Virus record (IMG/VR): IMGVR_UViG_2529292911_000007
Length of the DNA: 49,111 nucleotides
Direction: 5' to 3' (one strand)
Source of the DNA: a virus
Taxonomy: Duplodnaviria; Heunggongvirae; Uroviricota; Caudoviricetes
Shown: positions 13,949 through 43,922 of the stretch, in pieces
Layout of the letters: every line of letters starts with the position of its first letter
How positions within the stretch are numbered: the stretch's first letter is position 1
Position numbers and translations under genes: made by a program
The notes under the pieces: generated by a model
The model's database searches: none
Told to the model about the DNA's origin: nothing
What the model saw: the letters and a program-made list of their open reading frames with translations, nothing else

Positions 13949-15031
13949 TTAGAACTGGTAAACCATACCTACAGCAACGATATCATCGGTAGCAACGCCA
14001 GATGCTTTCGTGAAATCGCTCTTATCAATCAGGTTGATTTTGTAATCAACAAAAGTGGACATATTTTTGTTGAAGTAATAGGTTGCACCTACATCAATAT
14101 ATTCAACCAGGTCCTGATCACCCCACGCACCCAAGTCTTTTCCTTTAGATTGCAGGTAAGCAACGGACGGACGCAGACCGAAGTCGAACTGATATTGTGC
14201 AACTACTTCGAAGTTTTGTGCTTTGTTGGCAATATGGTTATTACCAAAAACAGTCATGTTCTGGGTTTCAGAATAGGTGGTAGCCAGATAGATGTTGTTC
14301 GCATCATATTTCAGACCAGCTGCCCATACTTCAGCATTTTGACCAGATGCATTCAGGCTGTTGTTACCGTAGATAACCTGATTATTAGTGCGGTCAGATT
14401 TAGCATAGGTTGCACCTACACCGAATCCTTCATACTCATAAGTAGTGGAGAAACCGAAACCATCACCATTAGCTTCAGTTACGTCAGTGCGGTCATTTTT
14501 ACCCTGATACTGAGCAGCAAAGTTCAGACCATCAACCAGACCAAAGAAGTCGTTGTTACGATAAGTTGCAACACCAGTGGTGCGACCAGTCATGAACACA
14601 TCTGTTTGGGTCCAGGTATCGCCACCGAATTCTGGCAGAACGTCAGTCCACGCACCGATGTCATATGCTACACCGTAGTTACGGCCGTAATCGATTGAGC
14701 CGTAGTCCCCGAATTTCAGGCCTGCAAATGCAAGACGGGTTTTGTCTTTGGAGGAGCCTTGAGATTCAGCGCGGTTGCCTTTGAATTCATATTCCCACTG
14801 ACCGAAACCAGTCAGTTGATCGTTGATTTGGGTTTCACCTTTGAAGCCAAGACGGGCATAAGTAGTATCACCATCATCTGCATCATTAGAGGAGAAGTAG
14901 TGCTTGGCATTAACTTTCCCATATAGATCCAGCTTGTTACTGTCTTTATTATAAATTTCAGCTGCCTGAGCAGACATCGCCATCAGTACTGATGCAGCTA
15001 CAGCAGAAATTGCCACTGTTAATTTTTTCAT
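13949..15031 (-). CDS. nmpC: Outer-membrane general porin (NmpC/OmpD-like)
   Basis: 360 aa with signal peptide ([23 protein letters not shown]) and C-terminal beta-barrel signature ending in F; OmpC/OmpF-family motifs; sits between Q and the holin as in DLP12. Confidence 0.85.
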
Positions 15032-15604: not shown

Positions 15605-15820
15605 ATGAAATCCATGGATAAGTTAACAACGGGTGTCGCCTATGGCACCTCAGCAGGTAGTGCCGGTTACTGGTTTTTACAGCTGCTCGATAAAGTCACG
15701 CCCTCACAGTGGGCAGCAATAGGTGTGCTGGGTAGCCTGGTATTTGGCCTGCTGACGTACCTGACAAACCTTTATTTCAAGATTAAAGAAGATAAGCGCA
15801 AGGCTGCGAGAGGTGAATAA
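15605..15820 (+). CDS. essD: Holin (class II, DLP12 EssD-like) with dual-start motif MKSM
   Basis: 71 aa with two hydrophobic segments and a charged C-terminus; ATG overlaps the lysozyme start (TAATG). Confidence 0.8.
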
Positions 15821-16164
15821 TGCCTCCATCATTACGAAAAGCCGTTGCTGCTGCTATTGGTGGCGGAGCAATTGCTATAGCATCAGTGTTAATCACTGGC
15901 CCAAGTGGTAACGATGGTCTGGAAGGTGTCAGCTACATACCATACAAAGATATTGTTGGTGTATGGACTGTATGTCACGGGCATACAGGAAAAGACATCA
16001 TGCTCGGTAAAACGTATACCAAAGCAGAATGCAAAGCACTCTTGAATAAAGACCTTGCCACTGTCGCCAGACAAATTAACCCGTACATCGAAGTCGATAT
16101 ACCGGAAACAACGCGCGGCGCTCTTTACTCATTCGTTTACAACGTGGGTGCTGGCAATTTAGAC
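15820..16164 (+). pseudogene. rrrD: Phage lysozyme (RrrD-like), 5' fragment interrupted by IS2
   Basis: [27 protein letters not shown]... lysozyme N-terminus; the reading frame runs into the IS2 left end at 16160. Confidence 0.8.
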
Positions 16165-16250
16165 TGGCCCCCTGAATCTCCAGACAACCAATATCACTTA
16201 TTTAAGTGATAGTCTTAATACTAGTTTTTAGACTAGTCATTGGAGAGCAG

Positions 16251-16616
16251 ATGATTGATGTCTTAGGACCGGAGAAACGCAGACGGCGTACTACACAGGA
16301 AAAGATCGCTATTGTTCAGCAGAGTTTTGAACCGGGAATGACAGTCTCCCTTGTTGCCCGGCAACACGGTGTGGCAGCCAGCCAGTTATTTCTCTGGCGC
16401 AAGCAATACCAGGAGGGAAGTCTTACTGCTGTGGCCGCAGGAGAACAGGTCGTTCCTGCCTCTGAACTTGCTGCCGCCATGAAGCAGATTAAAGAACTCC
16501 AGCGCCTGCTCGGCAAAAAAACGATGGAAAATGAACTCCTTAAAGAAGCCGTTGAATATGGGCGTGCAAAAAAGTGGATAGCGCACGCGCCCTTATTGCC
16601 CGGGGATGGGGAGTAA
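16251..16616 (+). CDS. insC: IS2 transposase OrfA (InsC)
   Basis: [56 protein letters not shown]... matches IS2 InsC from memory. Confidence 0.9.
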
Positions 16617-16814
16617 GCTTAGTCAGCCGTTGTCTCCGGGTGTCGCGTGCGCAGTTGCACGTCATTCTCAGACGAACCGATGACTGGAAAGATGGTCGCC
16701 GCAGCCGTCACTCAGATGATACGGATGTGCTTCTCCGTATACACCATGTTATCGGAGAGCTGAACCGCCCCGGAAATCCTGGAGACTAAACTCCCTGAGA
16801 AAGAGGTAAACAGG

Positions 16815-17141
16815 ATGACTAAAAATACTCGTTTTTCCCCCGAAGTCCGTCAGCGGGCGATTCGTATGGTTCTGGAAAGTCAGGATGAATATGACTCACA
16901 GTGGGCGGCAATTTGTTCCATTGCCCCAAAGATTGGCTGTACGCCGGAGACTCTGCGTGTCTGGGTTCGCCAGCATGAGCGGGATACCGGGGGCGGTGAT
17001 GGTGGGCTCACCAGCGCTGAACGTCAGCGTCTGAAAGAGCTGGAACGTGAAAATCGTGAACTGCGCCGCAGTAACGATATCCTTCGCCAGGCTTCCGCTT
17101 ATTTTGCGAAGGCGGAGTTCGACCGCCTCTGGAAAAAATGA
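16815..17141 (+). CDS. IS3-family transposase OrfA (HTH)
   Basis: 108 aa [22 protein letters not shown]... with a leucine-zipper-like C-terminus. Confidence 0.85.
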
Positions 17142-18028
17142 TGCCACTGCTGGATAAGCTGCGTGAGCAGTACGGGGTCGGACCGGTATGCAGCGAACTG
17201 CATATTGCCCCGTCAACGTATTACCATTGTCAGCAACAGCGACATCATCCGGATAAACGCAGTGCCCGTGCGCAGCACGATGACTGGCTGAAGAGAGAGA
17301 TACAGCGCGTATACGATGAAAATCATCAGGTGTACGGTGTGCGTAAAGTCTGGCGTCAGTTGTTACGGGAAGGAATCAGGGTGGCCAGATGTACAGTGGC
17401 GCGCCTCATGGCGGTTATGGGACTTGCCGGTGTTCTCCGGGGTAAAAAGGTCCGTACGACCATCAGCCGGAAAGCCGTTGCCGCAGGCGACCGCGTAAAC
17501 CGTCAGTTCGTGGCAGAACGACCTGACCAGCTGTGGGTGGCTGATTTTACTTACGTCAGCACATGGCGGGGCTTCGTCTATGTGGCGTTCATCATTGATG
17601 TGTTTGCCGGATACATCGTGGGGTGGCGGGTCTCATCGTCTATGGAAACGACATTCGTGCTGGATGCGCTGGAGCAGGCGTTGTGGGCCCGTCGTCCGTC
17701 TGGCACCATCCATCACAGCGATAAAGGCTCTCAGTATGTGTCACTGGCCTATACGGAGCGACTAAAAGAAGCCGGATTACTGGCATCAACAGGGAGTACA
17801 GGCGACTCGTATGACAACGCGATGGCTGAGAGCATCAATGGTCTTTACAAAGCGGAGGTAATACACCGTAAGAGCTGGAAAAACCGTGCAGAAGTGGAAC
17901 TGGCCACACTAACGTGGGTGGACTGGTATAACAATCGACGATTGCTGGGAAGGCTGGGCCATACTCCTCCGGCAGAAGCAGAAAAAGCTTATTATGCTTC
18001 CATCGGAAACAATGATCTGGCAGCTTGA
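17138..18028 (+). CDS. IS3-family transposase OrfB (DDE integrase core)
   Basis: 296 aa with a DDE-type catalytic region (WVADFTYV...HHSDKGSQY...DNAMAES); overlaps orfA in the -1 frame. Confidence 0.85.
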
Positions 18029-18803
18029 GTTCACAGATAAAACACTCTCCAGGAAACCCGGGGCGGTTCAAGCTGCCCACATATGGTTATCGTCGGGTAT
18101 GGGCGCTGCTTCGCAGACAGGCCGAACTTGATGGTATGCCTGCGATCAATGCCAAACGTATTTACCGGATCATGCGCCAGAATGCGCTGTTGCTTGAGCG
18201 AAAACCCGCTGTACCGCCATCGAAACGGGCACATACCGGCAGAGTGGCTGTGAAAGAAAGTAATCAGCGATGGTGCTCTGACGGGTTCGAGTTCCGCTGT
18301 GATAACGGAGAAAAACTGCGAGTCACGTTCGCGCTGGACTGCTGTGACCGTGAGGCACTGCACTGGGCGGTCACTACGGGCGGCTTCAACAGTGAAACAG
18401 TACAGGACGTCATGCTGGGAGCGGTGGAACGCCGTTTCGGCAACGAGCTTCCGGCGTCTCCAGTAGAGTGGCTGACGGATAATGGTTCATGCTACCGGGC
18501 TAATGAAACACGGCAGTTTGCCCGGATGTTGGGGCTTGAACCGAAGAACACGGCGGTGCGGAGTCCGGAGAGTAACGGCATAGCAGAGAGCTTCGTGAAA
18601 ACGATAAAGCGTGACTACATCAGTGTCATGCCCAAACCAGACGGGTTAACGGCAGCAAAGAACCTTGCAGAGGCATTCGAGCATTATAACGAATGGCATC
18701 CGCATAGTGCACTGGGTTATCGCTCGCCACGGGAATATCTACGGCAGCAAGCCAGTAATGGGTTAAGTGATAACAGGTGTCTGGAAATATAGGGGCAAAT
18801 CCA

Positions 18804-31050: not shown

Positions 31051-33622
31051 ACCGGTAGGCGATCTGGTCGTTGATTTAAGTCTGGATGCGGCCAGATTTG
31101 ACGAGCAGATGGCCAGAGTCAGGCGTCATTTTTCCGGTACGGAAACTGATGCGAAAAAAACAGCGGCAGTCGTTGAACAGTCGCTGAGCCGACAGGCGCT
31201 GGCTGCACAGAAAGCGGGGATTTCCGTCGGGCAGTATAAAGCCGCCATGCGTATGCTGCCTGCACAGTTCACCGACGTGGCCACGCAGCTTGCAGGCGGG
31301 CAAAGTCCGTGGCTGATCCTGCTGCAACAGGGTGGTCAGGTTAAGGACTCCTTCGGCGGGATGATCCCCATGTTCAGGGGGCTTGCCGGTGCGATCACCC
31401 TGCCGATGGTGGGGGCCACCTCGCTGGCGGTGGCGACCGGTGCGCTGGCGTATGCCTGGTATCAGGGCAACTCAACCCTGTCCGATTTCAACAAAAGGCT
31501 GGTCCTTTCCGGCAATCAGGCGGGACTGACGGCAGATCGTATTCTGGCCCTGTCCAGAGCCGGGCAGGCGGCAGGGCTGACGTTTAACCAGACCAGCGAG
31601 TCACTGACGGCGCTGGTGAATGCCGGTGTGCGTGGTGGTGAGCAGTTTGAGGCGATCAGCCAGAGTGTGGCGCGTTTCTCCTCTGCATCCGGCGTGGAGG
31701 TGGACAAGGTCGCTGAAGCCTTCGGGAAGCTGACCACAGACCCGACGTCGGGACTGACAGCGATGGCACGTCAGTTCCATAACGTGACGGCGGAGCAGAT
31801 TGCGTATGTTGCTCAGTTGCAGCGTTCCGGAGATGAAGCCGGGGCATTGCAGGCGGCGAACGAGGCCGCAACGAAAGGGTTTGATGACCAGACCCGCCGC
31901 CTGAAAGAGAACATGGGCACGCTGGAGACCTGGGCAGACAGGACAGCACGGGCATTCAAATCCATGTGGGATTCGGTGCTGGATATTGGTCGCCCGGACA
32001 CTGCCCAGGGAATGCTGGAGAAAGCAGAAAAGGCTTTTGATGAGGCGGACAAAAAATGGCAGTGGTATCAGAGCCGGAGCCACCGGCGCGGTAAAACCTC
32101 AGCATTTCTTGCCAATCTCCGGGGAGCATGGGAGGACAGAGCGAATGCGCAACTTGGGCTTTCAGCCGCCACGTTGCAGGCCGATCTTGAAAAGGCCAGA
32201 GAGATGGCAGCAAAGGACTGGGCCGAGTCTGAGGCATCACGGCTGAAATATACCGAAGAGGCGCAGAAGGCTTACGAACGCCTGCAGACGCCGCTGGAGA
32301 AATATACCGCCCGTCAGGAAGAACTGAACAAGGCACTGAAAGACGGGAAAATCCTGCAGGCAGATTACAACACGCTGATGGCGGCGGCGAAAAAGGATTA
32401 TGAAGCGACGCTGAAAAAGCCGAAACAGTCCGGCGTGAAAGTGTCTGCGGGCGATCGTCAGGAAGACAGTGCTCATGCTGCCCTGCTGACGCTTCAGGCT
32501 GAACTCCGGACGCTGGAGAAGCATGCCGGAGCAAATGAGAAAATCAGCCAGCAGCGCCGGGATTTGTGGAAGGCGGAGAGTCAGTTCGCGGTACTGGAGG
32601 AGGCGGCGCAACGTCGCCAGCTGTCCGCACAGGAGAAATCCCTGCTGGCGCATAAAGATGAGACGCTGGAGTACAAACGCCAGCTGGCTGCACTTGGCGA
32701 CAAGGTTACGTATCAGGAGCGCCTGAACGCGCTGGCGCAGCAGGCGGATAAATTCGCACAGCAGCAACGGGCAAAACGGGCCGCCATTGATGCGAAAAGC
32801 CGGGGGCTGACTGACCGGCAGGCAGCGCGGGAAGCCACGGAACAGCGCCTGAAGGAACAGTATGGCGATAATCCGCTGGCGCTGAATAACGTCATGTCAG
32901 AGCAGAAAAAGACCTGGGCGGCTGAAGACCAGCTTCGCGGGAGCTGGATGGCAGGCCTGACGTCCGGCTGGAGTGAGTGGGAAGAGAGCGCCACGGACAG
33001 TATGTCGCAGGTAAAAAGTGCAGCCACGCAGACCTTTGATGGTATTGCACAGAATATGGCGGCGATGCTGACCGGCAGTGAGCAGAACTGGCGCAGCTTC
33101 ACCCGTTCCGTGCTGTCCATGATGACAGAAATTCTGCTTAAGCAGGCAATGGTGGGGATTGTCGGGAGTATCGGCAGCGCCATTGGCGGGGCTGTTGGTG
33201 GCGGCGCATCCGCGTCAGGCGGTACAGCCATTCAGGCCGCTGCGGCGAAATTCCATTTTGCAACCGGAGGATTTACGGGAACCGGCGGCAAATATGAGCC
33301 AGCGGGGATTGTTCACCGTGGTGAATTTGTCTTCACAAAGGAGGCAACCAGCCGGATTGGCGTGGGGAATCTCTACCGGCTGATGCGCGGCTATGCCACC
33401 GGTGGTTATGTCGGTACACCGGGCAGTCTGGCTGACAGCCGATCGCAGGCGTCCGGGACGTTTGAGCAGAATAACCATGTGGTGATTAACAACGACGGCA
33501 CGAACGGGCAGATAGGTCCGGCTGCTCTGAAGGCGGTGTATGACATGGCCCGCAAGGGTGCCCGTGATGAAATTCAGACACAGATGCGTGATGGTGGACT
33601 GTTCTCCGGAGGTGGACGATGA
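31043..33622 (+). CDS. H: Tail tape-measure protein H
   Basis: 859 aa MAEPVGDLVVDLSLDAARFDEQMARVRRHF...; lambda gpH. Confidence 0.95.
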   Translation: MAEPVGDLVVDLSLDAARFDEQMARVRRHFSGTETDAKKTAAVVEQSLSRQALAAQKAGISVGQYKAAMRMLPAQFTDVATQLAGGQSPWLILLQQGGQVKDSFGGMIPMFRGLAGAITLPMVGATSLAVATGALAYAWYQGNSTLSDFNKRLVLSGNQAGLTADRILALSRAGQAAGLTFNQTSESLTALVNAGVRGGEQFEAISQSVARFSSASGVEVDKVAEAFGKLTTDPTSGLTAMARQFHNVTAEQIAYVAQLQRSGDEAGALQAANEAATKGFDDQTRRLKENMGTLETWADRTARAFKSMWDSVLDIGRPDTAQGMLEKAEKAFDEADKKWQWYQSRSHRRGKTSAFLANLRGAWEDRANAQLGLSAATLQADLEKAREMAAKDWAESEASRLKYTEEAQKAYERLQTPLEKYTARQEELNKALKDGKILQADYNTLMAAAKKDYEATLKKPKQSGVKVSAGDRQEDSAHAALLTLQAELRTLEKHAGANEKISQQRRDLWKAESQFAVLEEAAQRRQLSAQEKSLLAHKDETLEYKRQLAALGDKVTYQERLNALAQQADKFAQQQRAKRAAIDAKSRGLTDRQAAREATEQRLKEQYGDNPLALNNVMSEQKKTWAAEDQLRGSWMAGLTSGWSEWEESATDSMSQVKSAATQTFDGIAQNMAAMLTGSEQNWRSFTRSVLSMMTEILLKQAMVGIVGSIGSAIGGAVGGGASASGGTAIQAAAAKFHFATGGFTGTGGKYEPAGIVHRGEFVFTKEATSRIGVGNLYRLMRGYATGGYVGTPGSLADSRSQASGTFEQNNHVVINNDGTNGQIGPAALKAVYDMARKGARDEIQTQMRDGGLFSGGGR

Positions 33623-33948
33623 AAACCTTCCGCTGGAAAGTGAAACCCGGTATGGATGTGGCTTCGGCCCCTTCTGTAAGAAAGGTGCGCTTTGGTGATG
33701 GCTATTCCCAGCGAGCGCCTGCCGGGCTGAATGCCAACCTGAAAACGTACAGCGTGACGCTTTCTGTCCCCCGTTGGGAGGCCACGGCGCTGGAGTCGTT
33801 TCTGGAAGAGCACGGGGGCTGGAAAGCCTTTCTGTGGACGCCGCCTTATGAGTGGCGGCAGATAAAGGTGACTTGCGCAAAATGGTCGTCGCGGGTCAGT
33901 ATGCTGCGTGTTGAGTTCAGCGCAGAGTTTGAACAGGTGGTGAACTGA
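33619..33948 (+). CDS. M: Tail tip protein M
   Basis: 109 aa; lambda gpM position and length. Confidence 0.9.
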   Translation: MKTFRWKVKPGMDVASAPSVRKVRFGDGYSQRAPAGLNANLKTYSVTLSVPRWEATALESFLEEHGGWKAFLWTPPYEWRQIKVTCAKWSSRVSMLRVEFSAEFEQVVN

Positions 33949-34646
33949 TGCAGGATATCCGACAGGAAACACTGAATGAATGCACCCGTGCGGAGCAGTC
34001 GGCCAGCGTGGTGCTCTGGGAAATCGACCTGACAGAGGTCGGTGGAGAACGTTATTTTTTCTGTAATGAGCAGAACGATAAAGGTGAGCCGGTCACCTGG
34101 CAGGGGCGACAGTATCAGGCGTATCCCATTCAGGGGACGGGATTTGAACTGAACGGCAAAGGCAGTGCTGCCCGTCCGACACTGACGGTTTCTAACCTGC
34201 ACGGCATGGTCACCGGGATGGCGGAAGATCTGCAGAGTCTGGTCGGCGGAACGGTGGTCCGGCGTAAGGTTTACGCCCGTTTTCTGGATGCGGTGAACTT
34301 CGTCAACGGAAACAGTGACGCCGATCCGGAGCAGGAGGTGATCAGCCGCTGGCGCATTGAGCAGTGCAGCGAACTGAGCGCGGTGAGTGCCTCTTTTGTA
34401 CTGTCCACGCCGACGGAAACGGACGGCGCTGTTTTTCCGGGACGTATCATGCTGGCCAACACCTGCACCTGGACCTATCGCGGCGATGAGTGCGGTTATC
34501 ACGGTCCGGCGGTCGCGGATGAATATGACCAGCCAACGTTCGATATCACGAAGGATAAATGCAGCAAATGCCTGAGTGGCTGTAAGTTTCGCAATAACGT
34601 CGGCAACTTTGGCGGCTTCCTTTCCATTAACAAACTTTCGCAGTAA
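33948..34646 (+). CDS. L: Tail tip protein L
   Basis: 232 aa; lambda gpL position and length. Confidence 0.9.
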   Translation: MQDIRQETLNECTRAEQSASVVLWEIDLTEVGGERYFFCNEQNDKGEPVTWQGRQYQAYPIQGTGFELNGKGSAARPTLTVSNLHGMVTGMAEDLQSLVGGTVVRRKVYARFLDAVNFVNGNSDADPEQEVISRWRIEQCSELSAVSASFVLSTPTETDGAVFPGRIMLANTCTWTYRGDECGYHGPAVADEYDQPTFDITKDKCSKCLSGCKFRNNVGNFGGFLSINKLSQ

Positions 34647-34650
34647 TCCC

Positions 34651-35394
34651 ATGACAGAGACAGAATCAGCGATTCTGGCGCACGCCCGGCGATGTGCGCC
34701 AGCGGAGTCGTGCGGCTTCGTGGTGAGAACGCCGGAGGGGGAAAGATATTTTCCCTGCGTGAATATTTCCGGTGAGCCGGAGGATTATTTCCGGATGGCT
34801 CCGGAGGACTGGCTGCAGGCAGAAATGCAGGGTGAGATTGTGGCGCTGGTCCACAGCCACCCCGGTGGTCTGCCCTGGCTGAGTGAGGCCGACCGGCGGC
34901 TGCAGGTGCAGAGTGATTTGCCGTGGTGGCTGGTCTGCCGGGGGACGATTCATAAGTTCCGCTGTGTGCCGCATCTCACCGGGCGGCGCTTTGAGCACGG
35001 TGTGACGGACTGTTACACACTGTTCCGGGATGCTTATCATCTGGCGGGGATTGAGATGCCGGACTTTCATCGTGAGGATGACTGGTGGCGTAACGGCCAG
35101 AATCTCTATCTGGATAATCTGGAGGCGACGGGGCTGTATCAGGTGCCGTTGTCAGCGGCACAGCCGGGCGATGTGCTGCTGTGCTGTTTTGGTTCATCGG
35201 TGCCGAATCACGCCGCAATTTACTGCGGCGACGGCGAGCTGCTGCACCATATTCCTGAACAACTGAGCAAACGAGAGAGGTACACCGACAAATGGCAGCG
35301 ACGCACACACTCCCTCTGGCGTCACCGGGCATGGCGCGCATCTGCCTTTACGGGGATTTACAACGATTTGGTCGCCGCATCGACCTTCGTGTGA
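34651..35394 (+). CDS. K: Tail tip assembly protein K (JAMM/MPN plus NlpC/P60-like); start uncertain
   Basis: HSHPGG JAMM-like motif and a Cys/His peptidase-like C-terminal region; alternative start at ATG 34795, which has the better GGAGG RBS. Confidence 0.8.
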   Translation: MTETESAILAHARRCAPAESCGFVVRTPEGERYFPCVNISGEPEDYFRMAPEDWLQAEMQGEIVALVHSHPGGLPWLSEADRRLQVQSDLPWWLVCRGTIHKFRCVPHLTGRRFEHGVTDCYTLFRDAYHLAGIEMPDFHREDDWWRNGQNLYLDNLEATGLYQVPLSAAQPGDVLLCCFGSSVPNHAAIYCGDGELLHHIPEQLSKRERYTDKWQRRTHSLWRHRAWRASAFTGIYNDLVAASTFV

Positions 35395-35963
35395 AAACGG
35401 GGGCTGAAGCCATCCGGGCACTGGCCACACAGCTCCCGGCGTTTCGTCAGAAACTGAGCGACGGCTGGTATCAGGTACGGATTGCCGGGCGGGACGTCAG
35501 CACGTCCGGGTTGACGGCGCAGTTACATGAGACTCTGCCTGATGGCGCTGTGATTCATATTGTTCCCAGAGTCGCCGGGGCCAAGTCAGGTGGCGTATTC
35601 CAGATTGTCCTGGGAGCAGCCGCCATTGCCGGATCATTCTTTACTGCCGGAGCCACCCTTGCAGCATGGGGGGCAGCCATTGGGGCCGGTGGTATGACCG
35701 GCATCCTGTTTTCTCTCGGTGCCAGTATGGTGCTCGGTGGTGTGGCGCAGATGCTGGCACCGAAAGCCAGGACGCCCACGGCAGCCAGTACAGATAACGG
35801 CAAACAGAACACGTATTTCTCGTCACTGGATAACATGGTTGCCCAGGGCAATGTTCTGCCTGTTCTGTACGGGGAAATGCGCGTGGGATCACGTGTGGTT
35901 TCTCAGGAGATCAGCACGGCAGACGAAGGGGATGGTGGTCAGGTTGTGGTGATTGGTCGCTGA
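35292..35963 (+). CDS. I: Tail tip assembly protein I
   Basis: 223 aa; overlaps the K end as in lambda; ubiquitin-like N-terminus and hydrophobic Gly/Ala-rich segment. Confidence 0.9.
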   Translation: MAATHTLPLASPGMARICLYGDLQRFGRRIDLRVKTGAEAIRALATQLPAFRQKLSDGWYQVRIAGRDVSTSGLTAQLHETLPDGAVIHIVPRVAGAKSGGVFQIVLGAAAIAGSFFTAGATLAAWGAAIGAGGMTGILFSLGASMVLGGVAQMLAPKARTPTAASTDNGKQNTYFSSLDNMVAQGNVLPVLYGEMRVGSRVVSQEISTADEGDGGQVVVIGR

Positions 35964-36023
35964 TGCAAAACATTTTATGTGAAACCGCCTGCGGGCGGTT
36001 TTGTCGTTTATGGAGCGTGACGA

Positions 36024-39000
36024 ATGGGTAAAGGCAGCAGTAAGGGGCATACCCCGCGCGAAGCAAAGGACAACCTGAAGTCCACGCAGTTGCTGAGTGT
36101 GATCGATGCCATCAGCGAAGGGCCGATTGAAGGTCCGGTGGATGGATTAAAAAGCGTGCTGCTGAACAGTACACCGGTGCTGGACAGTGAGAGGAATACT
36201 AACATCTCCGGTGTCACGGTGGTGTTCCGGGCAGGTGAGCAGGAACAGACACCGCCGGAGGGATTTGAATCATCAGGTTCCGAGACGGTACTGGGTACGG
36301 AAGTGAAATACGACACGCCGATCACCCGGACCATCACGTCGGCAAACATTGACCGTCTGCGCTTTACCTTCGGTGTGCAGGCACTGGTGGAAACCACCTC
36401 AAAGGGGGACAGGAATCCGTCGGAAGTCCGCCTGCTGGTTCAGATACAACGTAACGGTGGCTGGGTGACGGAAAAAGACATCACCATTAAGGGCAAAACC
36501 ACCTCGCAGTATCTGGCCTCGGTAGTGGTGGATAATCTGCCGCCGCGCCCGTTCAACATCCGGATGCGCAGGATGACGCCGGACAGCACCACAGACCAGC
36601 TGCAGAACAAAACGCTCTGGTCGTCATACACCGAAATCATCGATGTGAAACAGTGCTACCCGAACACGGCACTGGTCGGCGTACAGGTGGATTCGGAGCA
36701 GTTCGGCAGCCAGCAGGTGAGCCGTAATTATCATCTTCGCGGGCGTATTCTGCAGGTGCCGTCGAATTATAACCCGCAGACGCGGCAATACAGCGGTATC
36801 TGGGACGGAACGTTTAAACCGGCATACAGCAATAACATGGCCTGGTGTCTGTGGGATATGCTGACCCACCCGCGCTACGGCATGGGTAAACGTCTTGGTG
36901 CGGCAGATGTGGATAAATGGGCGCTGTATGTCATCGGCCAGTGTTGCGACCAGTCGGTGCCGGACGGTTTTGGCGGCACGGAGCCGCGCATCACCTGTAA
37001 TGCCTGGCTGACCACACAGCGTAAGGCGTGGGATGTTCTCAGTGATTTCTGCTCGGCGATGCGCTGTATGCCGGTATGGAACGGGCAGACGCTGACGTTC
37101 GTGCAGGACCGACCATCAGATAAGGTGTGGACCTATAACCGCAGTAATGTGGTGATGCCGGATGATGGCGCGCCGTTCCGCTACAGCTTCAGCGCCCTGA
37201 AGGACCGCCATAATGCCGTTGAGGTGAACTGGATTGACCCGGATAACGGCTGGGAGACGGCGACAGAGCTTGTGGAGGACACGCAGGCCATTGCCCGTTA
37301 CGGTCGTAACGTCACGAAGATGGATGCCTTTGGCTGTACCAGCCGGGGGCAGGCACACCGCGCCGGGCTGTGGCTGATTAAAACGGAACTGCTGGAAACG
37401 CAGACCGTGGACTTCAGCGTGGGTGCCGAAGGGCTTCGCCATGTACCAGGTGATGTCATTGAAATCTGTGATGATGACTATGCGGGGATCAGCACCGGCG
37501 GGCGCGTGCTGGCGGTGAACAGCCAGACCCGGACGCTGACGCTCGACCGTGAAATCACGCTGCCATCCTCCGGTACCACGCTGATAAGCCTGGTTGACGG
37601 AAGTGGCAATCCGGTCAGCGTGGAGGTCCAGTCCGTCACCGACGGCGTGAAGGTAAAAGTGAGCCGTGTTCCTGACGGCGTTGCCGGATACAGCGTGTGG
37701 GGGCTGAAGCTGCCGACGCTGCGCCAGCGCCTGTTCCGCTGCGTGAGTATCCGTGAGAACGATGACGGTACGTATGCCATCACTGCCGTGCAGCATGTAC
37801 CGGAAAAAGAAGCCATCGTGGATAACGGGGCGCACTTTGACGGCGACCAGAGCGACACGGTGAATGGTGTCACGCCGCCAGCAGTGCAGCACCTGACTGC
37901 CGAAGTCACCGCAGACAGTGGGGAGTATCAGGTACTGGCCCGCTGGGATACGCCGAAGGTGGTGAAGGGCGTGAGTTTCATGCTTCGCCTGACCGTGGCA
38001 GCGGATGACGGCAGTGAGCGGCTGGTCAGCACAGCCCGGACGGCGGAAACCACATACCGCTTCACACAACTGGCGCTGGGGAACTACAGGCTGACAGTCC
38101 GGGCAGTAAATGCGTGGGGGCAGCAGGGCGATCCGGCATCGGTATCGTTCCGGATTGCCGCACCGGCAGCGCCGTCGCAGATTGAGCTGACACCGGGGTA
38201 TTTTCAGATAACCGCCACGCCGCATCTTGCGGTTTATGATCCGACGGTACAGTTTGAGTTCTGGTTCTCGGAAACGCGGATTACCGATATCAGGCAGGTT
38301 GAAACCACAGCCCGCTACCTTGGCACGGGGCTGTACTGGATAGCCGCCAGTATCAATATCAAACCGGGCCATGATTATTACTTTTATATCCGCAGTGTGA
38401 ACACCGTTGGCAAATCGGCATTCGTGGAGGCCGTCGGTCGGGCGAGCGATGATGCGGAAGGTTACCTGGATTTTTTCAAAGGCAAGATAACCGAATCCCA
38501 TCTCGGTAAAGGGCTGCTGGAAAAAGTCGACCTGACGGAAGATAACGCCAGCAGACTGGATCAGTTTTCGAAAGAGTGGAAAGACGCCAACGATAAATGG
38601 AATGCCATGTGGGGCGTCAAAATTGAGCAGACCGAAGACGGTAAGCATTATGTCGCGGGACTTGGCCTCAGCATGGAGGATACAGAGGAAGGCAAACTGA
38701 GCCAGTTTCTGGTTGCCGCTAACCGTATCGCGTTTATTGACCCGGCAAACGGGAATGAAACGCCGATGTTTGTGGCGCAGGGCAACCAGATATTCATGAA
38801 CGAAGTGTTCCTGAAACGCCTGACGGCCCCCACCATTACCAGTGGTGGAAATCCACCGGTATTTTCCCTGACACCGGACGGAAAGCTGACCGCTAAAAAT
38901 GCGGATATCAGTGGCAGTGTGAATGCGAACTCCGGGACGCTCAACAACGTCACGATAAATGAAAACTGTACGATTAAGGGTATGCTGGAGGCGAATCAGG

Positions 39001-39437
39001 TCAGAGGTGATTTTGTTAAAACAGTATCCAAATCATTCCCGAAAAAGGCTGGTACGTGGGGTAACACGGAAACACCAGACGGGACGGTTACAGTCACCAT
39101 CAGCGATGATCATAACTTTGACCGTCAAATCATTATTCCGCCCATTATCTTTAACGGTATAGCGTATGACGATCCGGGAAGTGGTGATAACCCGGGAGGT
39201 ACAAGGTACACGGGGTATGGTTTTGAAGTTCGCAAAAACGGCGTATTAATCGCATCCAGAGAAACTAAAGGGGCCATTCCCGGTAGTTACAGTGCGGTTA
39301 TTGATATGCCGAGTGGCAGGGGAAGCGTCACTCTGGAGTTTAAGATTTTCCAGAAAGGCAATCAGGGGGCAGGCAATATCACCGACTGTACGGTGATTGT
39401 GACCAAAAAGGCTGCTTCCGGCATCAGTATTCGTTGA
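36024..39437 (+). CDS. J: Central tail fibre / host-specificity protein J
   Basis: 1137 aa [44 protein letters not shown]...; lambda gpJ over most of its length; the extreme C-terminus appears divergent. Confidence 0.95.
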
Positions 39438-39507
39438 AATTGTTATAACCCCAATAAAGGGCGTCAGGAATGACGCCTTTTTTATTGCAGAAAAGCGAGA
39501 GGTAATT

Positions 39508-40107
39508 ATGCGTAAAGTTTGTGCAGCCATTTTGTCCGCAGCCATCTGTCTGGTCGTATCCGGTGCGCCTGCATGGGCGTCTGAACATCAGTCCACGCTG
39601 AGCGCGGGGTATCTTCATGCCTCGACGAACGTTCCCGGCAGCGATGATCTTAACGGGATTAACGTGAAATACCGTTATGAGTTTACGGACACGCTGGGGA
39701 TGGTGACGTCATTCAGCTATGCAGAAGACAAGAATCGCCAGCTGACTCATTACAGCGATACCCGCTGGCATGAAGATTCCGTGCGTAACCGCTGGTTCAG
39801 CGTGATGGCGGGGCCGTCTGTGCGCGTGAATGAATGGTTCAGCGCGTATGCGATGGCGGGTGTGGCTTACAGCCGTATTTCGACTTTCTCCGGGGATTAT
39901 CTCCGCGTAACTGACAACAAGGGGAAAACGCACGAAGTGCTGACCGGAAGTGATGACGGTCGCCGCAGCAACACGTCTCTGGCGTGGGGGGCTGGCGTGC
40001 AGTTTAACCCGACCGAATCCGTGGCCATTGATATTGTTTATGAAGGCTCCGGCAGTGGCGACTGGCGCACTGACGGTTTCATCGTGGGTGTCGGTTATAA
40101 GTTCTGA
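39508..40107 (+). CDS. lom: Lom outer-membrane protein (Ail/Lom family)
   Basis: 199 aa with signal peptide and beta-barrel pattern ending in YKF; immediately after J as in lambda. Confidence 0.85.
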   Translation: MRKVCAAILSAAICLVVSGAPAWASEHQSTLSAGYLHASTNVPGSDDLNGINVKYRYEFTDTLGMVTSFSYAEDKNRQLTHYSDTRWHEDSVRNRWFSVMAGPSVRVNEWFSAYAMAGVAYSRISTFSGDYLRVTDNKGKTHEVLTGSDDGRRSNTSLAWGAGVQFNPTESVAIDIVYEGSGSGDWRTDGFIVGVGYKF

Positions 40108-40165
40108 TTAGCCAGGTAACACAGTGTTATGACAGCCCGCCGGTTCAGGCGGGCTTTTTTGTGGG

Positions 40166-43100
40166 GTGAATATGGCAGTAAAGATTTCAGGTGTACTGAA
40201 AGACGGTGCAGGTAAACCGGTACAGAACTGCACAATCCAGCTGAAAGCAAAACGTAACAGCACCACGGTGGTGGTGAACACGGTGGCATCTGAAAATCCG
40301 GATGAAGCAGGGCGTTACAGCATGGACGTTGAGTACGGTCAGTACAGCGTTATTCTGTTGGTGGAAGGCTTCCCGCCATCGCATGCCGGGACCATCACCG
40401 TGTATGAAGATTCTCAACCCGGTACGCTGAATGATTTTCTCGGTGCCATGACGGAGGATGATGCCCGTCCGGAGGCACTGCGCCGCTTTGAACTGATGGT
40501 GGAAGAGGTGGCGCGTAACGCGTCCGCAGTGGCACAGGACACGGCAGCCGCGAAGAAGTCAGCCAGCGATGCCGGCACATCAGCCCGTGAGGCGGCAACC
40601 CATGCGACTGATGCTACAGGCTCAGCACGCGCAGCCAGCACGTCAGCCGGACAGGCCGCGTCGTCGGCTCAGTCAGCGTCTTCCAGCGCAGGAACGGCAT
40701 CAACAAAGGCTACTGAAGCATCAAAAAGTGCTGCCGCTGCAGAGTCCTCAAAAAGCGCGGCGGCCACCAGTGCCGGTGCGGCGAAAACGTCAGAAACGAA
40801 TGCGGCAGCGTCACAACAATCAGCCGCCACTTCTGCATCCACCGCGACCACGAAAGCGTCAGAAGCTGCCACCTCAGCCCGGGATGCGGCGGCCTCAAAA
40901 GAGGCAGCGAAATCATCAGAAACGAACGCATCATCAAGTGCCAGTAGTGCAGCTTCCTCGGCAACGGCGGCAGGAAATTCCGCGAAGGCCGCAAAAACGT
41001 CTGAGACGAATGCGGATAACAGCGCACAGGCGGCAGCGGCCTCACAAACTGCATCGGCAAACTCCGCGACAGCAGCCAAAAAATCAGAAACCAACGCGAA
41101 AAATAGCGAGGCAGCAGCAAAGAGCAGCGAAACAAACGCTAAAGCCAGCGAAACTAATGCTAAATCCAGTGAAACAAACGCGGCGAAATCTGCGGCGGAC
41201 GCACTTAATTATCGCAACCAGGCGCAAGTAATTGTTGGCGATAATATCGGTCTTGGCTCAGCCCCGCGTGATTGTCCTGATATTTCCGGCAACCCATCAG
41301 GGTATATCGGATTTATGCGCATTATGAGTAATGCAAAAGGCTTTCCATCGATTGCATCCGGTGAAAGCAGTCTTACGGGGTTTATTAGTCAGGTAGATGG
41401 AACACCAGCGTATACAGGTGTATTTCAGGGATGGGCTACGCGCTCGCTTTATACTTATCGCTGGAATCCGACAATAGGCCCGCAGTGGACGCGTCACGCA
41501 AGAAAAGATGCAGTGGACAGGCTTACTCAACTAACAGGTAATACACGCGTATATTGTCAAAATGCAAGCAAATTTTTTAGTATCTACGATTCAGGAACAT
41601 GGGGTTATTACGATGCAGAGAATAGCGAATGGATTCCGCTTTCGATCGCGGCCGGAGGTACTGGTGCGGCAACTATTGATGGTGCCAGAACGAATCTTGG
41701 CTTAGGTAGGAACAACAGCCCTCAACTTAACAGTCTATTTCTTGATAGATATAGTGATTCGACCAATACATACACATCTAGTGGAATTCTCCATACAAGA
41801 CTGTTAGCAACTGACAGCACTGTGCGTCTTGGTGCTGATATGTATGTTGAGACTTTATCAAATGAGCCAGGTCAATTAACAATAAGGTTTACATACGATG
41901 GTTCAACTGGTGCTTCAAAATATCTAAACCTTAACTCAGAAGGTAATTTAATTGTAGATAGTGCGATACTGAGATCAACGGTTGAAAAACCTTTACAAAT
42001 AAGGAGCGCTAACCCAGCAATAAGATTTAATGAAACAGATCGCCCGGCTAACACGCCTACTTATACTCTCATTGCTAATGCTGGCGACTGGTTTATTCAG
42101 AAACGCGATTATGATGATGCCGGAAGCGTTAGTAACGCAATTGCATATAATTTCGCAAACGACAGAATTGATGTGCAAAATCTTAAAGCGTCTGGGTTAA
42201 TTACAGCTAACTCAGGAATCGCAACATTAACAGGTCATGACTGGAACTCTCAGCATACTGATAACGTCGACAAATTTAGACCAATCGCAGGCAGTACAAA
42301 CGGCCCGGCAGGCTCTATGGTTCTTGGCGGCATTCATGTTCAATTTAGTAAAAATTATGCTGTGCAGTTCGGAGGCCGCAATTCCGGTTTTTGGGGAAGA
42401 ACAATTGAAAATGGAACGACGCAGGAATGGAAGAAATTACTAACAGTAGACGATCTCAATTCATCTACCGATCTTGCTGTCAGGTCATTAACCACATCTA
42501 ACCCGGTAAAATCTGGCGGAGGGCGAATTGATGTCCTTGGAAGCACGTCAGACTATAGCAAAATGGATTGCTTTGTACGTGGGTTTGATAGCACCGGTAA
42601 TTCTCTCGCGTGGGCGTTGGGTTCATCAGTCGGCGTAAGTAAGATGCTGTCGCTAAAAAATTTCTTTAGCGGAGCTGAGATACTGCTAAATGGTAATGAC
42701 GGCGCGGTTCAACTCAAAACAGGTGCTGTTAACGGGGCTAAAGCGCAGGCGCTCACTATCAACAAGGATGAGGTTAACTCAACTGTTGATTTAACTCTTA
42801 CAAAACAAACAGGGACTGGAAATCGTTTTGTTTTACAGAACTTAGGTAATACAGAACTATCATTTGCCGCAAAAGTATGGGGATCAAGTGATCGACAAAA
42901 CGTTTTTGAGGTTGGAACGTCTGCTGCGTATCTGTTTTATGCGCAAAAAACGTCAGCAGGCCAGTTGTTTGATGTAAATGGCGCTATTAATTGCACAACG
43001 CTGAATCAGTCATCAGACCGCGACCTTAAAGACGATATTCTCGTTATCAGCGACGCGACGAAAGCAATCCGTAAAATGAACGGATACACCTACACGCTCA

Positions 43101-43447
43101 AGGAAAACGGGATGCCTTATGCTGGCGTTATTGCACAGGAAGTAATGGAGGCGATACCAGAAGCTGTGGGATCGTTTACTCATTATGGTGAAGAGTTGCA
43201 AGGTCCGACCGTTGACGGCAACGAGCTACGCGAAGAAACTCGCTATCTTAATGTTGACTACTCCGCCGTGACGGGTTTACTTGTTCAGGTCGCCCGTGAA
43301 ACAGATGATCGCGTTACCGCGCTGGAAGAGGAAAACACAACGCTACGTCAAAATCTGGCAACAGCAGGCACCCGGATCAGCACTCTGGAAAATCAGGTAA
43401 GCGAACTGGTTGCACTTGTCCGGCAGTTAACAGGAAGCGAACATTGA
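40166..43447 (+). CDS. stf: Side tail fibre protein with C-terminal self-cleaving intramolecular chaperone (S74-like) domain
   Basis: N-terminus MAVKISGVLKDGAGKPVQNCTIQLKA... and Ala/Ser-rich shaft match lambda Stf; distal part is AT-rich; the C-terminus (SSDRDLKDDILVI...GYTYTLKENG...GVIAQEV...LNVDYSAVTGLLVQ...coiled coil) resembles the endosialidase/T5 L-fibre chaperone domain. Confidence 0.8.
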   Translation: MNMAVKISGVLKDGAGKPVQNCTIQLKAKRNSTTVVVNTVASENPDEAGRYSMDVEYGQYSVILLVEGFPPSHAGTITVYEDSQPGTLNDFLGAMTEDDARPEALRRFELMVEEVARNASAVAQDTAAAKKSASDAGTSAREAATHATDATGSARAASTSAGQAASSAQSASSSAGTASTKATEASKSAAAAESSKSAAATSAGAAKTSETNAAASQQSAATSASTATTKASEAATSARDAAASKEAAKSSETNASSSASSAASSATAAGNSAKAAKTSETNADNSAQAAAASQTASANSATAAKKSETNAKNSEAAAKSSETNAKASETNAKSSETNAAKSAADALNYRNQAQVIVGDNIGLGSAPRDCPDISGNPSGYIGFMRIMSNAKGFPSIASGESSLTGFISQVDGTPAYTGVFQGWATRSLYTYRWNPTIGPQWTRHARKDAVDRLTQLTGNTRVYCQNASKFFSIYDSGTWGYYDAENSEWIPLSIAAGGTGAATIDGARTNLGLGRNNSPQLNSLFLDRYSDSTNTYTSSGILHTRLLATDSTVRLGADMYVETLSNEPGQLTIRFTYDGSTGASKYLNLNSEGNLIVDSAILRSTVEKPLQIRSANPAIRFNETDRPANTPTYTLIANAGDWFIQKRDYDDAGSVSNAIAYNFANDRIDVQNLKASGLITANSGIATLTGHDWNSQHTDNVDKFRPIAGSTNGPAGSMVLGGIHVQFSKNYAVQFGGRNSGFWGRTIENGTTQEWKKLLTVDDLNSSTDLAVRSLTTSNPVKSGGGRIDVLGSTSDYSKMDCFVRGFDSTGNSLAWALGSSVGVSKMLSLKNFFSGAEILLNGNDGAVQLKTGAVNGAKAQALTINKDEVNSTVDLTLTKQTGTGNRFVLQNLGNTELSFAAKVWGSSDRQNVFEVGTSAAYLFYAQKTSAGQLFDVNGAINCTTLNQSSDRDLKDDILVISDATKAIRKMNGYTYTLKENGMPYAGVIAQEVMEAIPEAVGSFTHYGEELQGPTVDGNELREETRYLNVDYSAVTGLLVQVARETDDRVTALEEENTTLRQNLATAGTRISTLENQVSELVALVRQLTGSEH

Positions 43448-43618
43448 TATCCTTCAAGCCCTGAAGGAGGCTGTTCCTGGTACGTTCAGACTGTTGCTGA
43501 GCTGGAGATCGCAACGGAGGAAGAGAAAGCGTTTCTGGCCGCATGGAAAACATATCGGGTATTGCTGAACCGTGTTGATACAGTAAACCCCGTCTGGCCT
43601 CCACCTTCGAAGCGATAG
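43448..43618 (+). pseudogene. tfa: Tail fibre assembly protein (Tfa) C-terminal remnant, in frame directly after the stf stop
   Basis: Translation ...[29 protein letters not shown]... resembles the lambda Tfa C-terminus (EIATKEE...[22 protein letters not shown], from memory); no start codon or N-terminal part. Confidence 0.45.
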
Positions 43619-43922
43619 CCCAGCAACTCCTAAATAGCTGCGCATAATACCGCTACACCTGCCGTTTTACTGACATTTGGAATATTGCGTGAGGGCAACA
43701 TATCGAGGGGCAGATACAGCTCGGTCAAATAGAAAAACAGCCCCACTATTTACCATGCAATAGCTGGTCAAAAGGAGAGCACTATTCCGCTCCGCGTAGT
43801 ATTTTGTGTTTATAGTGATAACTTAGGTAATGCTTAGTCACTAAGATACTTTGCTATTGGAGAGCGATTTATAATGTGGGCGCAACAGATTTTTACTATT
43901 GCGCCACTTGCTCTTGTGAGTA

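Follow-up and report, generated by a model that had tools for sequence, protein, structure and literature searches.

A prophage gene J joining a lambda-like tail fibre body to a receptor-binding domain of the phage 434 allele

Gene J and its neighbours

The stretch of viral DNA analysed here (the window, 49,111 nucleotides) is a lambdoid prophage in integrated order. Over positions 38000-46000, it shares 99.9% identity with prophages in ETEC1731 and CV839-06, two porcine ETEC strains in which the prophage adjoins an icd fragment. The features considered first are gene J, its two parts, and what follows it downstream:

36024-39437, plus strand: gene J, tip attachment/host-specificity protein; intact open reading frame of 1137 residues
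36024-38942, plus strand: J body, residues 1-973, with hub domains, FNIII/Ig domains, helical shaft, and central straight fibre
38943-39437, plus strand: J receptor-binding domain (RBD), residues 974-1137 plus the stop codon; phage 434 allele and predicted OmpC binder, from alignments, Pfam, PDB, and AlphaFold2 (AF2)
39460-39486, plus strand: J-lom hairpin, GGCGTCA-GGAA-TGACGCC followed by T6, read from the sequence (the hairpin scan reports it on the minus strand)
39508-40107, plus strand: lom, an Ail/Lom outer-membrane beta-barrel protein of 199 residues (Pfam Ail_Lom, 408.8 bits)

The full-length protein carries six J-specific Pfam domains in the lambda order (Phage-tail_3, FNIII-A_GpJ, Ig_J, Ig_J_second, Phage_Tail_Tip, and Ig_GpJ_C), with the RBD at the C-terminus. 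In the records of phages 434 and mEp460, the site homologous to the J-lom hairpin carries the annotation of a rho-independent terminator.

Divergence of the J C-terminus from lambda

J was aligned globally with lambda J (NC_001416, 15505-18903), phage 434 J (OL657226), and mEp460 J (JQ182728). An earlier sequence-only reading had held that J matches lambda over most of its length, and the pairwise alignment to lambda gpJ bears this out, with 940 of 973 positions identical (96.6%) across residues 1-973 and 86-100% identity in each 50-residue window up to residue ~950. Beyond this point, identity in successive 50-residue windows declines through 48%, 40%, 34%, 30%, and 27%. The final long run of identity between the two proteins, 27 amino acids, ends at residue 973 in both. 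Residues 974-1137 are identical to lambda in 64 of 170 alignment columns (37.6%), and the contrast between body and C-terminus is strong (Fisher p = 7e-74).

The same reading had proposed that the C-terminus diverges from lambda, and the alignment contradicts the opposite outcome, that this end is as similar to lambda as the rest of the protein. Its interval, 38950-39437, corresponds to residues 976-1137 plus the stop codon, a boundary accurate within 3 residues. The divergence was thus placed correctly at the C-terminus, but its length had been put at roughly 150 residues, where the alignment gives ~164.

Family and fold of the divergent end

Residues 1001-1136 match the Pfam family PF12421 (Ig_GpJ_C, "C-terminal receptor binding domain") over profile positions 1-134 of 135, scoring 87.7 bits against a gathering cut-off of 26.2. 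A PDB sequence search with the RBD returned gpJ chains only, aligned across the full domain, the best being A8 gpJ (9wca, E 3e-55) and others being lambda gpJ (8xcj and 8iyk, E ~1e-44). We also built an AF2 model of residues 964-1137 as a monomer from an alignment of 20 homologues. The model is all-beta, with a mean pLDDT of 80.7 (moderate confidence), and its top four Foldseek matches are 8xck, 9wcb, 9wca, and 8xcj (E ~1e-15 to 1e-16, TM 0.69-0.71). Of these, 8xck and 8xcj show the lambda central fibre in its closed and LamB-bound states, and 9wca and 9wcb show the corresponding states of the A8 gpJ fibre, its bound partner being OmpC of EDL933. The next match after the gpJ tips is eleven orders of magnitude weaker (E 4e-5). 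Structure prediction, a check proposed along with the sequence-only reading, therefore places the C-terminus closest to the solved gpJ tips, whose Ig-like/jelly-roll fold the model shares.

Sequence and model together show that J, for all its divergence from lambda, still ends in a gpJ receptor-binding domain, which can be aligned end to end with that of lambda. It shares with the lambda RBD (8xck closed, 8xcj with LamB) both PF12421 and the fold (TM ~0.70, 41% identity over the model); it differs from it in sequence, at the 37.6% given above, and in its expected receptor, which would be OmpC where that of lambda is LamB. By analogy with the lambda and A8 structures, the domain would form the distal trimer of the central fibre.

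Allele identity of the receptor-binding domain

A homologue search covering 5.8 billion proteins showed that RBD homologues fall into discrete classes, which are either at least 85% identical to the window RBD (the 434 class) or at most 52% identical (the others, including lambda-like RBDs); no full-coverage homologue in that search lay between 52% and 85%. Comparison with J proteins of phages that use other receptors, likewise proposed at the outset, puts the RBD in the allele class of phage 434, an OmpC phage.

Phage 434 J (central tail fibre, UMO75286, OL657226) is likewise 1137 amino acids long and is followed by the same terminator and lom type. It is 96.8% identical to the window J overall and 94% identical over residues 974-1137, with 36 substitutions in total and 10 in the RBD (E980Q, N991T, T1000A, S1004A, A1009V, D1055N, R1099G, I1108V, Q1110H, and G1115R). 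The side tail fibre of phage 434 is unrelated to that of the window after its N-terminal part. The mEp460 host specificity protein (AFM76055, JQ182728) is closer still, at 98.6% overall (16 substitutions) and 99% in the RBD, where only D1055N and I1108V separate the two and the DNA is 99.3-99.4% identical. We found no published receptor assignment for mEp460 in a literature search. J is also mosaic outside the tip, DNA identity to mEp460 being 90-95% across ~37424-38400 and 97-100% at the two ends of the gene.

Against 434, the RBD has a dN/dS of 0.075 and the remainder of J one of 0.067, giving no signal of positive selection within the 434 class. Within the class, purifying selection thus acts on the RBD as it does on the remainder of the protein. 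The gpJ modules of A8 and 1A2 bind OmpC and have been grafted at lambda residue 964, a position inside the 27-residue stretch of identity ending at residue 973. They were considered as the same allele and rejected, as they belong to other classes and are ~47-52% identical to the window RBD (1A2 was compared by eye only). By sequence, the window RBD is the h434 host-range allele of phage 434 and stands apart from the other classes.

Variable and conserved parts of the tip

Alignment of the RBD with 15 RBDs of other allele types revealed four stretches with essentially no conservation:

39042-39077, plus strand: hypervariable stretch 1, residues 1007-1018 (12 residues), near 0% identity to the other types
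39159-39221, plus strand: hypervariable stretch 2, residues 1046-1066 (21 residues), longest in the 434 type
39255-39287, plus strand: hypervariable stretch 3, residues 1078-1088
39342-39383, plus strand: hypervariable stretch 4, residues 1107-1120, in which I1108, Q1110, and G1115 differ from 434

Several of the 10 changes relative to 434 fall in these stretches. Stretch 2 is an insertion relative to other RBD types, six residues longer than in lambda, and holds D1055, a position occupied by N in both 434 and mEp460. Scaffold motifs are kept across the RBD classes, namely a 10-residue motif, DDxxFDRQI, NG, DMPxGxG..TL.F, and KK..GISI. We considered and rejected a concentration of the divergence in loops of the AF2 model (loops compared with strands: mean identities 0.42 and 0.36, Mann-Whitney p 0.38, not significant). 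The variability is patchy, falling in the four stretches, and does not follow the DSSP division into loops and strands.

Lambda inserts four bottom loops, L1-L4, into LamB (PMC11101478), and by analogy the four hypervariable stretches are probably their counterparts. An extra long loop of 434 J is predicted to contact OmpC (PMC12502783); stretch 2 would correspond to this loop.

The 434-class tips also differ in their cysteines (39024-39437). Around residues ~1060-1122 they are without a cysteine (..SSCRL.. / ..SMCYL..) that is present in all other aligned classes and have one at residue 1122 (ITDCTV) instead, while Cys982 is invariant across all classes.

A block of DNA spanning the J tip, the terminator, and most of lom

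Module exchange, which the sequence-only reading had offered as an explanation, predicts a sharp DNA breakpoint joining a different RBD allele to a lambda-like body, and the DNA supports it. Homology to lambda runs at 95.4% over 33519-38993, then stops, and resumes only at ~39980-40024. In steps of 100 nt, DNA identity to lambda is 87-100% until ~38943, decays over ~50 nt, and is ~50% (unalignable) from ~38995 to ~40020. Homology to 434 is unbroken over 33000-40593 at 94.8%, covering J, the intergenic region, and lom, and that to mEp460 is likewise continuous through all three. The non-lambda block, ~38945-40020, consists of the RBD, the J-lom terminator, and most of lom: the first ~510 nt of this 600-nt gene lie within it, and lambda homology is back in the last ~100 nt. 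The block recurs at 92-99% identity in 434, mEp460, cdtI, and Stx phages that have otherwise different J bodies. As a separate observation, lom is co-inherited with the J tip in 434 and mEp460.

The same C-terminus might instead have diverged in place from a lambda-like ancestor, by point mutations under diversifying selection and with no exchange of a block. The lambda and window RBDs are indeed homologous over their entire length, and the decay of identity at the 5' edge is graded over ~50 nt. We nevertheless regard this history as highly improbable, since within the same ~50 nt DNA identity falls from ~95% to unalignable, with an abrupt return near 40000, and the unalignable stretch takes in a noncoding terminator and ~510 nt of a neighbouring gene. 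The discreteness of the RBD allele classes and the recurrence of one block beside differing J bodies also speak against it. A sharp-edged block that includes noncoding DNA and part of a neighbour gene, and that recurs across J bodies, points to recombinational exchange rather than divergence in place. The DNA thus indicates that the RBD was acquired by recombinational exchange between long-diverged alleles. One qualification of this exchange reading is that the module is a homologous gpJ RBD with the same fold, not an unrelated domain.

Frequency of the 434 and lambda alleles

To count the 434 allele, we used as query the strictly divergent 444 nt (38994-39437) at a threshold of at least 90% identity, with megablast sensitivity (roughly at least 85% identity). 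DNA of this type is present in 2112 of 5426 complete E. coli genomes (~39%), with up to 7 copies per genome, and in 74 phage records, which include 434, lambda h434 imm21, mEp460, cdtI, phage 2851, and many Stx1a-, Stx2c-, and Stx2a-converting phages. The 429-nt equivalent from lambda is found in 98 of the 5426, always at 99% identity or more, and the five matches listed are K-12, B, and DE3 laboratory strains. The 434 allele is therefore ~20 times more frequent than that of lambda in complete E. coli genomes. At megablast sensitivity, the window allele is a common natural variant and the lambda allele is the rare one, so that "diverged from lambda" is a matter of reference.

Expected receptor and mode of binding

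Host specificity is set by the gpJ C-terminus (PMC3509688; PMC11101478). For phage 434 and the lambda h434 hybrid, the receptor is OmpC and not LamB (PMC3509688, PMC11101478, PMC12502783), and lambda comes to bind OmpC, as 434 does, when its J gene is exchanged for that of 434 (PMC3509688, PMC11101478). According to a 2025 study, OmpC is the target of the 434 fibre and LamB that of lambda J; the study also reports 35-40% identity among the RBDs of lambda, 434, and phi330, a phage that depends on OmpC (PMC12502783). The 37.6% measured here agrees with that figure. Brodel et al. (2024) fused natural gpJ C-termini at lambda residue 964 and obtained OmpC-dependent particles; their gpJ chimeras also told OmpC variants apart (PMC11338833).

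From the identity of its allele, the window J would be expected to use OmpC. We consider it very likely that this J is a central tail fibre of the lambda type ending in the 434 (h434) RBD allele, which makes up its last ~164 residues, is directed to the OmpC porin, and was acquired as a recombinational block. The block at ~38945-40020 would, in this proposal, have brought in the allele along with the J-lom terminator and the greater part of lom. On the model of lambda gpJ, a distal Ig-like/jelly-roll tip would be built from three copies of the protein, and its variable bottom loops would dock in the extracellular mouth of a trimeric porin, as in the lambda model (PMC11101478); with the 434 allele, this porin would be OmpC in place of LamB. 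In the lambda model, binding to the porin spreads the tip, which leads to a rearrangement of the shaft and opening of the tail (PMC11101478), and a lambda-like trigger of this kind may, by homology, also operate in the window J.

A general assignment to OmpC has to reckon with the polymorphism of OmpC in E. coli. A 434-like RBD could have been retuned by substitutions to another porin (OmpF, LamB, or a prophage porin) or to a narrow subset of OmpC variants. The RBD does carry its 10 substitutions relative to 434, some of them in hypervariable stretches, a few J mutations are enough for lambda and phage 21 to gain the use of OmpF or OmpC (PMC11336670), and OmpC variants can be discriminated by gpJ chimeras (PMC11338833). 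Replacements are not in excess, however, at a dN/dS of 0.075 against 434, and the presence of the allele at 90% nucleotide identity or more in so many E. coli genomes and phage records suggests one conserved function. We therefore think retuning unlikely and expect OmpC to be the receptor, as for 434.

Other genes of the prophage

Several genes elsewhere in the prophage are damaged. Relative to phage PhiR30_1, the endolysin gene R (start 15820; region 15820-18803) carries a 2.64-kb insertion that breaks it at ~16164. The ends of this insertion are those of IS2, with inverted repeats at 16169-16200 and 18764-18795 and an IS2 TnpA reading frame at 16206-16616, and a second IS3-family element is nested within it (inverted repeats 16761-16785 and 18046-18070). 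With its endolysin gene interrupted by insertion sequences, this prophage copy is probably lysis-defective and may no longer lyse its host or make infectious particles. Such damage (the nested insertion at 16164-18803, and a tail-fibre-assembly remnant and pseudogenes downstream of J) would be in keeping with J itself being a decaying remnant in a defective prophage, its C-terminus without current function. We find this scarcely credible, since the J reading frame is intact at 1137 residues, is only 16 substitutions from the J of an isolated phage, mEp460, and has a low dN/dS; decay of the prophage would in any case leave the identity of the domain unchanged.

Downstream of lom, the side tail fibre gene (40166-43447, plus strand, 1093 residues) encodes an N-terminal domain like that of lambda (phage_tail_N), a repeat region rich in Ala and Ser, and, at the C-terminus, a Peptidase_S74 intramolecular chaperone with a coiled coil after it. 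Compared with mEp460, the gene is mosaic, lacking homology at 41525-42229, and G+C falls to 0.39-0.46 over 41300-43000. The tail-fibre-assembly remnant, a truncated gene, lies 3' of it at 43496-43618. At the right end of the prophage (~43900-49111; gene coordinates carried over from the annotation of ETEC1731) are pseudogenes of an acyltransferase and a recombinase, together with a gene for an AAA-family ATPase (~46078-48033) and an McrC-like gene that runs from ~48078 to the window end, where it is cut off. The last two suggest a McrBC-like restriction module beside the icd attachment site.

An intact porin gene (13949-15031, minus strand, 360 residues) lies between the Q antiterminator and the lysis genes. 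Its product belongs to the NCBIfam "porin OmpC" subfamily (518 bits), and its DNA shares 89.1% identity with lc, the porin gene of phage PA-2 (J02580.1). Porin genes of the lc type are carried by 36 phage records, and at least 12 of the ~26 distinct porin-carrying phages have a 434-type J tip. The two are not strictly linked, as the porin is absent from mEp460, cdtI, and the Stx phages, all of which carry the tip. Phage PA-2 uses OmpC, and expression of the Lc porin lowers OmpC. We entertained the idea that the RBD of this porcine-ETEC prophage lineage, with its private D1055 in the longest hypervariable loop, is tuned to a particular OmpC variant and possibly acts together with the PA-2 lc-type porin of the prophage, and we hold it to be distinctly unlikely. 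If it were true and the lc-type porin lowered OmpC in lysogens, released virions and related phages would be kept from adsorbing to lysogens, and the J tip and porin would make up a receptor-targeting plus receptor-replacement system on one prophage.

Implications for lambdoid host range

The h434/OmpC host-range allele is already known, widespread, and exploited in engineering, and its occurrence here is no new biology. The natural breakpoint in J coincides with the junction, in the region of lambda residue 964, already chosen by engineers for redirecting lambda particles. The result is of use chiefly in annotation: OmpC, not LamB, should be the predicted target for this prophage and for the ~39% of complete E. 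coli genomes that carry the allele.
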